Below, piece after piece: positions 15,291-22,930 of a DNA stretch of 64,000 nucleotides (positions within the stretch are counted from its first letter, which is position 1; the number at the start of each line of letters is the position of its first letter). This DNA is from Escherichia coli. Lineage in GTDB: Bacteria > Pseudomonadota > Gammaproteobacteria > Enterobacterales > Enterobacteriaceae. The notes beneath the pieces are model-generated. The model worked only from the letters and a program-made list of their open reading frames with translations, made no database searches and was not told where the DNA came from. Where the stretch lies: NCBI RefSeq assembly GCF_030013595.1, contig NZ_CP122768.1; one strand, written 5' to 3'. Position numbers and translations under genes: made by a program.

Positions 15291-15953
15291 ATGGCTTATC
15301 GCGACCAACCTTTAGGTGAACTGGCGCTCTCTATTCCTCGCGCTTCGGCTCTGTTTCGTAAATATGATATGGATTACTGCTGCGGCGGTAAGCAAACGCT
15401 GGCGCGTGCGGCGGCACGTAAAGAACTGGATGTTGAGGTCATTGAAGCTGAGCTGGCAAAGCTTGCTGAACAACCGATTGAGAAAGACTGGCGTAGCGCC
15501 CCGCTGGCAGAAATCATCGACCATATCATCGTGCGCTACCACGATCGTCACCGCGAGCAACTGCCGGAGCTGATCCTGCAAGCGACTAAAGTCGAACGCG
15601 TTCACGCCGACAAACCGAGCGTTCCAAAAGGGCTGACAAAATACCTGACTATGCTGCATGAAGAGCTTTCCAGCCACATGATGAAAGAAGAGCAGATCCT
15701 CTTCCCGATGATCAAACAAGGCATGGGCAGCCAGGCAATGGGGCCAATCAGCGTAATGGAAAGCGAGCACGATGAAGCGGGTGAACTGCTGGAAGTAATC
15801 AAACACACTACCAATAACGTCACACCGCCGCCGGAAGCCTGCACCACCTGGAAAGCGATGTATAACGGCATTAATGAACTGATTGATGACCTGATGGAGC
15901 ACATCAGCCTAGAAAATAATGTGCTGTTCCCGCGCGCACTGGCGGGTGAGTGA
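15291..15953 (+). CDS. ytfE: Iron-sulfur cluster repair di-iron protein YtfE (RIC), 220 aa
   Basis: ORF track 220 aa [37 protein letters not shown]...; ScdA_N and hemerythrin-like motifs. Confidence 0.92.
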
Positions 15954-17410: not shown

Positions 17411-17718
17411 GTTTTTTTCTTCCTGTACCTGTCTGTGTTGTTCAGGCTCTACGGCCTTTAGTCAGTCTATGATACGACGAATCTGTATCGGGACTCATCG
17501 ATATTAGGTAACAATACGCGGGATGAATACTAAGATTTAGATCTAATGTTAATTTTATGTTTAAAGTGAGTGTCATATCACGGTGATAACGCGAAACAGC
17601 TCACAAAAATACACGCTTACGGGGTCTTTGCAACACAAAATAGCGCCGTTTGGCAAACTGAAGGGTTTATTGCTGAATGTCTGCTCCCCTCTGGTTCGAG
17701 GGGAACAGAATGCGCTGC

Positions 17719-18339
17719 TTAGAGGATTTCCAGCAGTTCGACTTCAAACACCAGGGTGCTGAACGGAGGGATGGACGCGCCTGCGCCACGCTCGCCATAT
17801 GCCAGTTCCTGCGGGATAGTCAGTTCCCATTTAGAACCTACCGGCATCAGAGTCAGTGCTTCAATCCAGCCAGGGATCACGCCGTTAACCGGGAATTCAG
17901 CTGGCTCGCCGCGAGCAACGGAGCTGTCAAACACGGTGCCGTCGATCAGTTTTCCGGTGTAATGAACACGAACGCGGTCGGTACGTGCCGGAATTGCGCC
18001 TTCGCCCTGGTTGATCACGCGGAATTGCAGGCCAGATTCGGTGCTATTTACACCTTCTTTTTTGGCGTTTTCTTCCAGGTATTTCACACCTTCAGCAGCC
18101 ATCGCCTGGAAACGCTGACGACGAACGGCATCGGCGCGTTCGTGGATTTCACGCAGCGCGCGGTGCACCACATCAACCGGAACAACCGGATGTTTGCCTT
18201 CCAGCGCATCAGCAATGCCTGCAACCAGTGCTTCTGGCAGCAGCCCTTCCAGGCCAGATTCACTCAGTTGTTGCCCTACCTGCAAACCAATGCCGTAGCT
18301 TGCTTGCGCTTCGATGGTGTCAAAAGTTGGGGTGGTCAT
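17719..18339 (-). CDS. fklB: FKBP-type peptidyl-prolyl cis-trans isomerase FklB (206 aa from MTTPTFDT)
   Basis: ORF 17719-18498 contains [22 protein letters not shown]...[25 protein letters not shown] domain. Confidence 0.92.
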
Positions 18340-18556
18340 CGTATTTCCTTTCTTAGGGTATAAAGTAGCGGGCAGCATATCAGCCACACTTCTTTGGGTA
18401 AAACTTTGTCGCGGGAATGATGACAAATCCCGGGGAAAAAGAAACAATAGCAATATCCCGTATGAATATAATAAAGGCGGGTTTACCACGGACATCATAG
18501 CGTTAGCTTATTCATAGGCTATGATTGAGGAACAAGACGCGGAGCAGGAGGAAACC

Positions 18557-19195
18557 ATGCCCGGGCGCTTTGAACTAAAACCAACCCTGGAGAAAGTCTG
18601 GCACGCGCCGGACAATTTTCGCTTCATGGACCCGCTGCCGCCGATGCATCGTCGGGGGATCATTATTGCCGCCATTGTATTGGTAGTCGGATTTCTGCTT
18701 CCATCTGATGATACGCCCAACGCGCCGGTGGTGACGCGTGAAGCGCAGTTAGATATTCAGTCGCAATCACAACCACCGACAGAAGAACAGCTGCGGGCGC
18801 AATTAGTCACGCCACAAAATGATCCTGATCAGGTGGCTCCGGTCGCTCCAGAACCAATACAGGAAGGCCAGCCAGAAGAGCAGCCGCAACCCCCCCAAAC
18901 GCAACCATTCCAGCCAGATAGCGGAATTGATAATCAATGGCGCTCTTACCGTGTCGAACCCGGTAAAACGATGGCACAGCTGTTCCGCGACCACGGGCTG
19001 CCCGCTACCGATGTCTATGCAATGGCGCAGGTAGAAGGCGCGGGTAAGCCGCTGAGTAATTTGCAAAACGGGCAGATGGTGAAAATCCGCCAGAACGCCA
19101 GCGGCGTGGTGACGGGCTTAACCATTGATACGGGGAATAATCAACAGGTCCTGTTTACCCGCCAGCCGGATGGCAGTTTTATTCGTGCGCGGTAG
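18557..19195 (+). CDS. ytfB: OapA/LysM-domain cell-division-associated protein YtfB (212 aa from MPGRFELKP; alternative start at 18521)
   Basis: ORF 18521-19195; single TM segment, Pro/Gln-rich linker, C-terminal OapA-like domain. Confidence 0.85.
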
Positions 19196-19329
19196 ATGAA
19201 GGGTCAACCAGAAGCCAGCTAAGGAGCGTCTCTTTGATGACCTTACGTCTGGCTTCCAGTGCCTGGGGGGAAACCATACTGATGTGTTGACATCCTCCAC
19301 GCCCTGAAGGACGTGGATCCCTGCTACGT

Positions 19330-20538
19330 TCAGGCTGTCGCCTGAATCATTTCGGTGGGTTCCTGCTTCAACGAGCGGCCTGACTGCACCATCTCTCCAC
19401 AGGCAAGAACGGCGTGCCCCGCCGCTAAAATGTTACGAGCGCCATTTACATCGGCGTTCGCTGTATATCCACATACCTGGCATCTGAATTTAATTTGTGA
19501 CAGGCGATTTTCTTTCGCTGTATGACCACAGCACGCGCAACGCTGGCTTGTGTACGCTGGCGGAACAGCAAGCACCTGACCGCCACGCCAGAGCTGCTTG
19601 TACTCAAGCTGGCGGCGCATTTCATACCAGCCCTGATCCAGTATCGAACGGTTTAAACCTGATTTTGCCCGGACATTGCGCCGCGGCTGGCTGACCGTAC
19701 CCGCTGCTGACTTTGACATGTTGCTGACCTTCAAATCCTCAATGACTATCATTGCGTGGTTTTTGCTGACGGTCGTTGTGACTTTGTGAAGGTAGTCCCT
19801 GCGGATATTTGCGATACGGGAATGCAGTCGCTGTATTTTGCGTTTCTGCTTCTGCCAGTTATTGCTGAATTTGACCTTGCGGCTTAACTGTCGCTGAAGT
19901 CTCGCCAGCTTCTTCTGTTTTTTCTGAAAACTGTTTACAGGCTCAAAGACTGTGCCATCTGACAGCGTGGCGAGTTTAACCACGCCAGCATCCAGCCCGA
20001 CCATTGATGCTGAAGGATGAACCGGAGTTGATACTTCACTTTCTGTCTGAATACTGATGTACCACTTACCGCAGGACTGGCTGACCGTGACATTTTTCAC
20101 AACACCCGTGACCTGACGGCTATTCCGGTAGCGCATCCAGCCCAGTTTCGGCAGAAAAATACGGCTGTTTTCCTGATAGAGCTTAACGCCCTACGGGTAG
20201 CGGAATGCATCATTCTGTCCCCGCTTTTTGAATCGGGGAAAAGCAGCCCGCTTCTGGAAGAAGTTTTTGTAAGCCCGCTCAAGGTCTTTCAGTGACTGTT
20301 GCAATGGCTGTGACGGGGCATCTTTAAGCCATTGCGTTTCAGTGGCATTTTTCCACTCAACCAGCCAGGAAGCCATTTTCCCGTAAGGGATGTATTTATT
20401 ACCGGCCTCATGATTCTCATTCTGAAGCGCCAGAGCACGATTGAAAACGAAACGACATGCGCCTGCGAAGCGCCTCATTTCACGCTCCTGTTGACCACCG
20501 GGTCTTAACTGGAATTTAAATGCCTGTCGTCGTTTCAC
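19330..20538 (-). pseudogene. tnpB: tnpB (IS605 OrfB / TnpB RNA-guided nuclease family), ~402 codons interrupted by one in-frame TAG at 20191-20193
   Basis: N-terminal ORF (GTG start) VKRRQAFKFQLRPGGQQE...AFRYP, then TAG, then in the same frame GVKLYQENSRIFLPKLGW-MRYRNSRQVTGVV...; C-terminal part has RuvC-like region and CxxC...CxxC zinc finger ([39 protein letters not shown]). Confidence 0.8.
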
Positions 20539-20545
20539 AGGTCAA

Positions 20546-21000
20546 ATGATACTTTGGTCTGTGAAAAAAGAAACCTATATCCGGCGTGGAAGGTATTGTG
20601 TTTTCCTGATGCATGTTCACCTGGTCTTTGTCCCAAATACCGACGCCAGATTTTTGACCATGACGCGACAGAAAAACTACGCACTTACTTTTCAAATGTA
20701 TGTGCTGATTTTGAAGCTGAACTGGTTGAAATGGATGGCGAACCAGATCACGTCCATTTGTTAATTAAATATCCTCCCAAACTGGCGATATCCAGTCTGG
20801 TAAACAGCCTCAAAGGCGTATCGGGTAGGTTACTGCGACGAGATCGACCAGATATTGCAGTCAGGTATTACTACAAAGGCGTTTTGTGGAGTCCTGGCTA
20901 TTTTGCCAGTAGCTGTGGAGGTGCGCCAATATCCGCCATCCGTCAATCCATTGAACAACAGCAAACACCTGGTCAGGTGGAAAACCGCGCCGTATATCCC
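20546..21000 (+). pseudogene. tnpA: tnpA (IS200/IS605 Y1 HuH transposase), frameshifted; 3' limit uncertain
   Basis: Frame 1 MILWSVKKETYIRRGRYCVFLMHVHLVF, then a 1-nt frame change in a T-run (~20620-20630) into CPKYRRQIFDHDATEK...DHVHLLIKYPP (HuH motif)...[16 protein letters not shown]; a Ser occupies the position where family members have the catalytic Tyr. Confidence 0.7.
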
Positions 21001-21357
21001 CGCCCTGAAGGACGGGGTTTTACGGCACACCGGATAAACCAGGCCAAGCGTATGCTGGTTGATCAAATAATATCCCCCAAGCGCAGCAATATTAATATAC
21101 ACCTGCAATGGGTCGATATCTGGCTTAAAAATATTGTGTTTCTTCCCTTCATCCAATAAGGATTCCATTAACTGCAAGTGCGCATGATTAATTTCTAAGA
21201 GACGCTGTGATTTTACATAATGCACACCTTTACTTTGGTTTTCACTATGCACAATTTTTAAAAACCAAGGATTAGCAATATAATATATCCTAGGTAAAAT
21301 CGATGATTTTTTCAATGGCTTTTTGTGGCTGGTTAACCTGCTGATTAACAAACGCAC
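20830..21357 (-). CDS. Hypothetical ORF (175 codons) starting in the low-GC islet and reading into the IS element end; possibly a ytfA-like gene remnant
   Basis: ORF track 175 aa [17 protein letters not shown]...; roughly the first 108 codons lie outside the IS hairpin at ~21017, the rest is antisense to tnpA. No recognisable domain by eye. Confidence 0.3.
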
Positions 21358-21603
21358 CGATACCGACAGCGTAGAATAATTACATACCGCACAACAAGAA
21401 TGTATGGTGTAAGGCGTTGTCAGTCATCTCCCTCCCTGGGTGCATCTTTATATCCGTGATGAGCGATTTTTGATATTAATATCTTTTACTATCCGCTATT
21501 TTCACCACTTCAGAAAACAAACTTATTTTTATTAATATCGATTATTTATTCTGTGCACATTCAGCTGCGATATTTATAAAAAAATTAAACAGGCAAAAAT
21601 ACA

Positions 21604-22398
21604 ATGACATTACCAACCACTATTTATTCATTTCCTGCATATTCACCCCGTTTTTCGTCCACCGACAAACCAGTAAAATTAAAATTTCATCAATACGCAC
21701 GCGCTACATTACTTTCAAATCGAGGAAGAGATCATAATTGCGATGGCAGACATACTGTTGAGATCCACAAACTAGATCTCTCAGGCTGGCAAGCATTCAA
21801 TAAGTTAGCGACGAGGTGTAATGCTTACGATGGAATAACAATGAATGGTGATAATTCTTTTGGATGGAACCATGAAGCTACATTAGATAATATTCACGCC
21901 CAGAAATACAATAAAGCTTACGCGGGTGCGAGGTTAACCGCAGAACTGAAATATTTATTGCAAGATGTTGAATCCTTCGAACCCAACAGTAAATACACAA
22001 TACACGAGGTTGTTTTGGGACCTGGTTATAGTACTCCAGACTATACCGGCCAAACGATAGGATACGTTGTAACCCTTCCTGCCCAAATGCCTAATTGCTG
22101 GTCATCTGAACTACCAACAATCGATCTTTATATCGACCAACTTCGCACTGTTACAGGCGTTTCTAATGCCCTCGGATTCATCATTGCTGCATTGCTAAAC
22201 GCGTATTCTGATTTACCCCATGATTTGAAAATTGGTCTGCGTTCCTTATCAAGTTCAGCAGCAATCTACTCGGGTTTGGGTTTCGAGCGAGTGCCGCAGG
22301 GCCGAGACATAAGGTGCGATCGTATGCATCTAACGCCAGCAAACCATCCTGAATTATGGACACAAGAGAATGGTGAATGGATCTACTTGCGAAACTAA
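21604..22398 (+). CDS. yjfZ: Uncharacterized protein YjfZ, 264 aa, low-GC gene
   Basis: ORF track 264 aa MTLPTTIYSFPAYSPRFSSTDKPVKLKFHQYARATLLSNRG...; AT-rich codon usage and AT-rich upstream region. Confidence 0.8.
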   Translation: MTLPTTIYSFPAYSPRFSSTDKPVKLKFHQYARATLLSNRGRDHNCDGRHTVEIHKLDLSGWQAFNKLATRCNAYDGITMNGDNSFGWNHEATLDNIHAQKYNKAYAGARLTAELKYLLQDVESFEPNSKYTIHEVVLGPGYSTPDYTGQTIGYVVTLPAQMPNCWSSELPTIDLYIDQLRTVTGVSNALGFIIAALLNAYSDLPHDLKIGLRSLSSSAAIYSGLGFERVPQGRDIRCDRMHLTPANHPELWTQENGEWIYLRN

Positions 22399-22420
22399 TA
22401 CCTAACGAAAAATAGAAAGC

Positions 22421-22448
22421 AAAACGCCGACCAGTGGTCGGCGTTTTT
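22421..22448. terminator. Bidirectional rho-independent terminator between convergent yjfZ and rplI
   Basis: aaaa-cgccgaccagtggtcggcg-ttttt: GC-rich stem flanked by an A-run and a T-run. Confidence 0.75.
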
Positions 22449-22468
22449 ACGTCTCGTTGAATAACGAA

Positions 22469-22930
<462 letters not shown>

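Follow-up and report, generated by a model that had tools for sequence, protein, structure and literature searches.

The window analysed here, a stretch of 64,000 nucleotides from the Escherichia coli chromosome, contains in order fklB, ytfB, a remnant of ytfA together with a copy of IS609, yjfZ and rplI. ytfB (18521-19195) is carried on the plus strand and rplI, rpsR, priB and rpsF on the minus strand, and yjfZ belongs to an islet with a GC content of 0.36-0.40, compared with 0.52 for the window as a whole. The subject of this analysis is a minus-strand open reading frame (ORF) that begins within the islet, passes through the ytfA remnant and ends inside the insertion sequence. The features at the locus are as follows:

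19179-19286, minus strand: C-terminal fragment of ytfA, codons 181-215 and the stop codon, lying beyond IS609; a PGAP pseudogene fragment in an identical genome
19287-21033, minus strand: IS609 (IS200/IS605 family), 1747 bp, decayed, with its left end at 21033 and its right end at 19287
19296-19317, minus strand: right-end subterminal hairpin, CCACGTCCTTCAGGGCGTGG; DNA fold -12.7 kcal/mol, z -3.3
19330-20538, minus strand: tnpB/insQ pseudogene; Pfam HTH_OrfB_IS605, OrfB_IS605 and Cas12f1-like_TNB
20546-20976, plus strand: tnpA (Y1 transposase) pseudogene; Pfam Y1_Tnp, E 1.2e-34
20830-21357, minus strand: chimeric ORF of 175 codons, with a GTG start at 21357 and its stop codon at 20832-20830
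20830-21033, minus strand: IS-derived tail of the ORF, 67 codons plus the stop, crossing the left end of IS609 and then lying antisense to the tnpA 3' end
20987-21028, minus strand: left-end subterminal hairpin, core CCCCGTCCTTCAGGGCGGGG; DNA fold -16.1 kcal/mol, z -2.8
21034-21285, minus strand: ORF residues 25-108, 252 nt, corresponding in the native frame to ytfA codons 97-180, and to part of TetR_C_29, the domain for ligand binding and dimerisation
21286, no strand: 1-nt insertion, absent from K-12 and from the intact allele
21287-21329, minus strand: ORF residues 10-24, 43 nt, an out-of-frame reading of ytfA from codon 82 (third base) to codon 96, a junk peptide
21330-21357, minus strand: ORF codons 1-9 plus 1 nt, 28 nt of yjfZ-islet DNA carrying a non-native GTG
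21330-22415, plus strand: yjfZ islet, 1086 bp, with yjfZ (DUF2686) at 21604-22398

The frame was first remarked upon in an earlier note, made from the DNA alone, as a 175-codon minus-strand ORF at 20830-21357 that starts in an AT-rich islet, crosses the left-end hairpin of an insertion sequence and runs antisense to tnpA. This description proved accurate throughout. The ORF listing returns the same frame, with a GTG start and a product of 175 aa, and the GTG lies 28 nt inside the yjfZ islet, whose breakpoint is at 21329/21330. The hairpin, placed by the note at about 21017, agrees with a predicted fold core at approximately 20999-21018, and the overlap with tnpA extends over about 20830-20976, measured against a reference tnpA frame ending at 20976. 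Alignment with the empty site of strain G1/2 fixes the boundary: IS609 ends with base 21033, and host DNA starts with base 21034. Codons 1-108 (21357-21034) are host DNA, which makes the note's estimate of about 108 host residues exact, and codons 109-175 (21033-20833, 67 codons) are IS DNA, with the junction in the translation reading ...GLVY/PVCRK...

The host part is itself composite. Residues 1-24 are not native protein, being encoded by islet DNA followed by out-of-frame ytfA; the stretch 21330-21357 has no homology to the intact TetR gene, and a local alignment with the intact allele stops at 21329. The 1-nt insertion at 21286 brings the frame of the upstream GTG into register with that of native ytfA, and PGAP labels the ytfA fragment 'frameshifted'. 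At the other end of the ORF, the tail lies antisense to approximately the last 48 codons of tnpA (20830-20976). The ORF is an accidental fusion of what is left of the ytfA pseudogene with the end of IS609.

The name IS609 and the assignment to the IS200/IS605 family come from RefSeq annotations, and every property of the family that was looked for is present in this copy: a Y1 (HUH) TnpA together with TnpB, imperfect subterminal hairpins in place of terminal inverted repeats, the lack of a target duplication and a target at the left end. The tnpB strand of the element is the minus strand of the window, and the left- and right-end hairpins have the same loop. No target duplication was seen in the G1/2 alignment or at the junctions, the empty site reading GATATG/ATAAACC without duplicated bases. 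On the tnpB strand the sequence 5'-TTTAT directly abuts the left end at both of the independent sites that were read, namely ytfA (21034-21038) and ydcO/ydcL (in DH5alpha), and the empty site of K-12 on this strand reads TTTAT followed by CACATCAGTATGGTTT. TTTAT is a candidate for the target/TAM sequence of IS609.

At 1747 bp the copy in the window is slightly shorter than other copies of IS609 (1748 bp), and both of its genes have decayed. Relative to the intact 143-aa TnpA of O157:H7, tnpA is missing one nucleotide at 20632/20633, and a T-to-C change at 20974 has turned its TAG stop into CAG, so that the frame exits the element and reaches 21159. In tnpB a CAG codon has become a TAG internal stop at 20193-20191, which PGAP records as 'internal stop'. 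O157:H7 strain PV15-279 has the same element (1748 bp) at the same insertion point and in the same orientation, but with tnpA (143 aa) and tnpB (402 aa) intact where both are pseudogenes in the window, and the window copy differs from the O157:H7 copy at this locus by 35 substitutions and 1 indel. Because these orthologous copies are 2% diverged and range from intact (O157:H7) to doubly inactivated (the window), their comparison indicates that IS609 at the ytfA locus is an old, vertically inherited insertion that has been decaying separately in each lineage.

Several further observations concern the surroundings of this element. Because tnpA has lost its stop codon, a mirror ORF of 201 aa (20554-21159, plus strand) reads out of IS609 and continues antisense through the ytfA remnant, and this and the 175-codon ORF, both accidental, overlap on opposite strands over 20830-21159. 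Elsewhere in the window several other ORFs of at least 175 aa overlap a longer frame on the opposing strand, with, for example, 15312-15902 (minus) lying against 15291-15953 (plus) and 17677-18363 (plus) against 17719-18498 (minus); the window holds 60 ORFs of at least 175 aa, and long shadow ORFs are common. An Rfam scan of 18500-22500 found nothing within the ORF. It gave two sub-threshold matches, both at the 3' end of tnpB and the right end of the element (19274-19403, minus strand), to HgcC (23.9 bits, gathering score 50) and RAGATH-18 (29.5 bits, gathering score 44.9). This is the expected place for a TnpB omega-RNA, the guide of which would then derive from the C-terminal fragment of ytfA and the 3' end of ytfB.

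The earlier note suggested that the uninterrupted gene might be recovered from genomes without the insertion sequence, and that its product would have been longer or different. Both points are answered by G1/2, which at the orthologous position encodes a 215-aa TetR/AcrR regulator (WP_001299246.1), so the original product was indeed longer. The intact protein has a TetR_N domain at residues 19-61 and a complete TetR_C_29 domain at residues 83-201 (Pfam). We regard it as the ancestral form, its residues 97-180 corresponding to residues 25-108 of the ORF, and IS609 splits the gene exactly between codons 180 and 181. As in the window, the intact gene adjoins ytfB, and its C-terminal end overlaps the stop region of ytfB convergently by 17 nt (19179-19195 in the window) in intact and remnant alleles alike.

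In G1/2, as in most E. coli genomes, the gene is divergent from an 8-gene operon for catabolism and TRAP transport; in G1/2 this operon reaches to the rplI terminator and encodes a 3-ketoacyl-ACP reductase, a sugar-phosphate isomerase/epimerase, an enoyl-CoA hydratase, an acyl-CoA:acetate/3-ketoacid CoA-transferase, an FAD-dependent oxidoreductase and three TRAP transporter subunits. The transporter is of the DctQMP type, and the reductase of the cluster is an SDR. This operon is the likely target of the intact regulator, and presumably the cluster is regulated by intact YtfA. The helix-turn-helix (HTH), the promoter and the operon that are present at the G1/2 locus are all missing from the window, where the 1086-bp islet stands in for 9439 bp of the intact allele, namely the operon, the DNA separating it from ytfA, and 245 nt at the 5' end of ytfA. 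The right breakpoint of this replaced 9.4-kb segment lies directly upstream of the rplI terminator hairpin.

The descent of the middle of the ORF from such a regulator is clear. The note proposed a search with the N-terminal part of the ORF, and a homologue was readily found: Pfam TetR_C_29 (PF17938) matches residues 25-119 with an E value of 3.7e-20, and BLASTP against the intact protein gives 83/91 identities (91%, E 2e-60). The Pfam match covers profile positions 15-109 of 119, its last 11 or so aligned residues being IS-derived, and the domain is truncated at both ends. Of the 84 codons in the native frame, 6 are changed in the window relative to the intact allele, 4 of them synonymously and 2 non-synonymously, which is too small a number to demonstrate relaxed selection. 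Neither the 67-aa IS-derived tail in Pfam nor the ORF as a whole in NCBIfam produced a match.

The domain that defines the family is absent. No match to the TetR_N HTH (PF00440) was found on the 175-aa ORF with Pfam, and the corresponding DNA of the intact allele has been replaced in the window by the yjfZ islet. A further trait of TetR/AcrR proteins, a full-length product of about 190-220 aa encoded beside its target genes and often divergent from them, is found only in the intact allele and not in the window, from which the operon is absent. The ORF is thus the descendant of a TetR/AcrR protein without being a complete member of the family, and it does not qualify as a regulator, since the defining HTH was not found in it.

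To place these alleles in a population, we used a set of 5426 complete E. coli genomes, of which 5425 were matched by a megablast search with 19200-21650. The window type itself is rare in its exact form: genome HCP5S3_I2 is 100% identical to the window over 19200-21650, and only three records in the set are at least 99% identical over this interval. Grouped by structure, the genomes fall as follows:

Intact regulator and operon junction: 3131 of 5426 genomes (58%)
yjfZ-truncated without IS (K-12 type): 482 of 5426 genomes (9%)
yjfZ-truncated with IS609 (window type): 1742 of 5426 genomes (32%)

IS609 inserted in a 5'-intact ytfA, searched for with a synthetic chimeric query, was found in none of the 5426 genomes. 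The earlier note had read the locus as a host gene disrupted by the insertion sequence, with fortuitous read-through. This is correct in that ytfA is split between codons 180 and 181 and the read-through varies in length between strains, but IS609 is not the sole lesion and, most likely, not the first. Because the insertion was found in a 5'-intact gene in no genome, and 482 genomes have the truncation without it, IS609 most likely inserted into an already dead gene, and it is on this basis that we infer the truncation to have preceded the insertion. The insertion sequence as the primary lesion was rejected as the leading model on the same count of 0/5426.

A version of this model, which takes the note's reading in its plainest form, can be stated in which IS609 killed a functional gene, the islet truncation followed and genomes of the K-12 type then lost the element by precise excision. 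Elements of the IS200/IS605 family excise precisely, an event that could make the IS-free truncated allele secondary, and IS609 does physically split the ytfA coding sequence. Such an order, however, requires an extinct intermediate allele and an additional excision step, and it is set against the complete lack of genomes combining IS609 with an intact 5' part, compared with the 482 that are truncated and free of the element. We consider it very unlikely, and retain the order in which the truncation came first.

Whether the length of the ORF needs any explanation of its own can be judged from its variability and from chance. In the window, in HCP5S3_I2 and in seven further genomes with the element, nine in all, the corresponding frame measures 61, 86, 140 or 175 aa, and a single TAC/TAA SNP at approximately 20993 closes the frame 13 codons into the element in four of the seven other strains. 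Since its length differs between strains, the read-through is fortuitous. Reading from a randomly chosen codon, one meets 67 or more open codons with a probability of about 0.10 within IS609 and of 0.20 across the window, and the middle 84 codons are free of stops because this stretch was formerly part of a coding sequence; the ORF is not beyond what chance plus descent would give.

One could suppose that the part within the element is a genuine antisense gene or regulatory ORF of IS609 over tnpA, into which the host part merely reads. Antisense regulation of tnpA has a precedent in IS200, and in the reference O157:H7 copy the antisense frame is likewise open for 67 codons. The open run is, however, of a length reached by chance about one time in ten, the tail resembles no protein family, and the IS part has no start codon to define an internal gene, the frame being entered only from outside. 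As an IS-encoded gene the antisense frame was rejected on its closure by the TAA at about 20993 in 4/7 other orthologous copies, and the probability that we attach to this explanation is close to negligible.

The signals expected of an expressed gene were also sought. No Shine-Dalgarno-like run could be read in the sequence upstream of the GTG, and a promoter and terminator scan of 20900-21650 found no sigma-70-like promoter on the minus strand upstream of 21357; the only promoter-like sites on this strand lie inside the ORF, in numbers within shuffle expectation. The PGAP annotation of HCP5S3_I2 has no CDS at the ORF and shows two TetR/AcrR pseudogene fragments flanking the decayed element, and in nearly all of the genomes read PGAP marks the ytfA remnant as a pseudogene, with frameshifts of the remnant in the window and in PEC1013. 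We infer that the ORF is not expressed.

The contrary proposal, that the ORF or a remnant of the K-12 type yields a free-standing TetR C-terminal protein which retains some function, perhaps in ligand binding or interference with TetR dimers, the IS tail being tolerated, draws on three observations. Codons 97-180 still form an open frame, with 91% identity to the intact protein, the remnant is retained in about 41% of complete genomes, and a preprint in which K-12 ytfA is treated as a pseudogene reports some effects of CRISPRi directed at it in K-12, including altered expression of dapE and bssS (bioRxiv 10.64898/2025.12.20.695731). These effects could be polar effects on the overlapping ytfB, since the 17-nt overlap of the two genes means that perturbation of ytfA, for example by CRISPRi, could affect ytfB. 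Against the proposal, the fragment is without the first 14 and about the last 10 of the 119 positions of the C-terminal profile and without the entire HTH, the native promoter and start codon are deleted with no promoter or Shine-Dalgarno sequence seen in their place, and start and stop positions vary between strains (61-175 aa), to which the remnant frameshifts and pseudogene calls described above may be added. We regard it as extremely unlikely. More speculatively, a YtfA fragment, alone as in strains of the K-12 type or with the IS tail, might still be made and sequester the ligand of the lost operon or poison TetR dimers, or transcription reading in from the islet might feed tnpB and its omega-RNA; ideas of this kind we hold to be highly improbable.

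The preferred reading is instead a stepwise one. In what was most likely the first step, the AT-rich, 1.1-kb yjfZ islet replaced the operon and the first 81-82 codons of ytfA, the whole HTH included, leaving a promoterless and startless remnant, which is the pseudogene b4205 of K-12. IS609 then inserted exactly between codons 180 and 181, 3' of a TTTAT on the strand of the gene and with no target duplication. In a third step, the 1-nt insertion at 21286 joined the native frame to a GTG that happens to lie in the islet, this frameshift and the decay of IS609 probably occurring later, in the lineage of the window. Any translation from the GTG would leave the remnant, cross the left-end hairpin, run antisense to the 3' end of tnpA and stop at 20830. 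The anatomy of the ORF, its orthology to ytfA and the allele frequencies are direct observations from the alignments and genome counts, and we are highly confident that the ORF has no function and arose by accident, three unrelated stretches of DNA having been put together by way of truncation, IS609 insertion and a 1-nt insertion. Nothing in the sequence speaks against this reading.

For annotation, the locus is properly described as a pair of ytfA (TetR/AcrR) pseudogene fragments on either side of IS609, which is how PGAP already treats it, and not as a 175-aa protein. It provides a textbook case of stepwise gene decay, all stages of which still segregate in E. coli, and it could be used as a phylogenetic marker. 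The pair of filled and empty sites could in addition act as a natural substrate for studies of excision by IS609 TnpA and of TnpB homing.

Among known systems the closest is ytfA of K-12 itself. The locus is identified as E. coli ytfA (b4205) by its position between ytfB and yjfZ, by the shared 5' breakpoint and by high DNA identity, the alignment of the window with K-12 being continuous from the islet through the remnant (21417-21034). The K-12 gene, formerly listed as 'uncharacterised protein YtfA' (108 aa), is a TetR C-terminal remnant at the same locus, and its DNA is 98% identical to the window over the shared 252 nt, with 5 mismatches. In K-12 MG1655, which is without IS609 at this site, the remnant runs to the native stop (...STAHE) and the longest ORF is 108 aa, whereas the window has IS609, the 1-nt insertion at 21286 and two amino-acid changes. 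Because IS609 and the insertion are present, the frame in the window, unlike that in K-12, starts earlier, at the islet GTG, and ends inside the element. More widely, ytfA is listed among the TetR-family regulators that are restricted to a subset of E. coli strains, and it occurs in every E. albertii and E. fergusonii strain examined (PMC6790063). The nearest annotated counterpart of the read-through is a PGAP 'hypothetical protein' of 122 aa (WP_227897769.1) in O145:H28 strain RM13516, an equivalent frame across the IS609 left end that meets a TAA about 13 codons into the element. As this version is shorter and without the 1-nt insertion of the window, the read-through is not conserved, and the case is one of ordinary gene decay, already annotated, at the known ytfA pseudogene locus.
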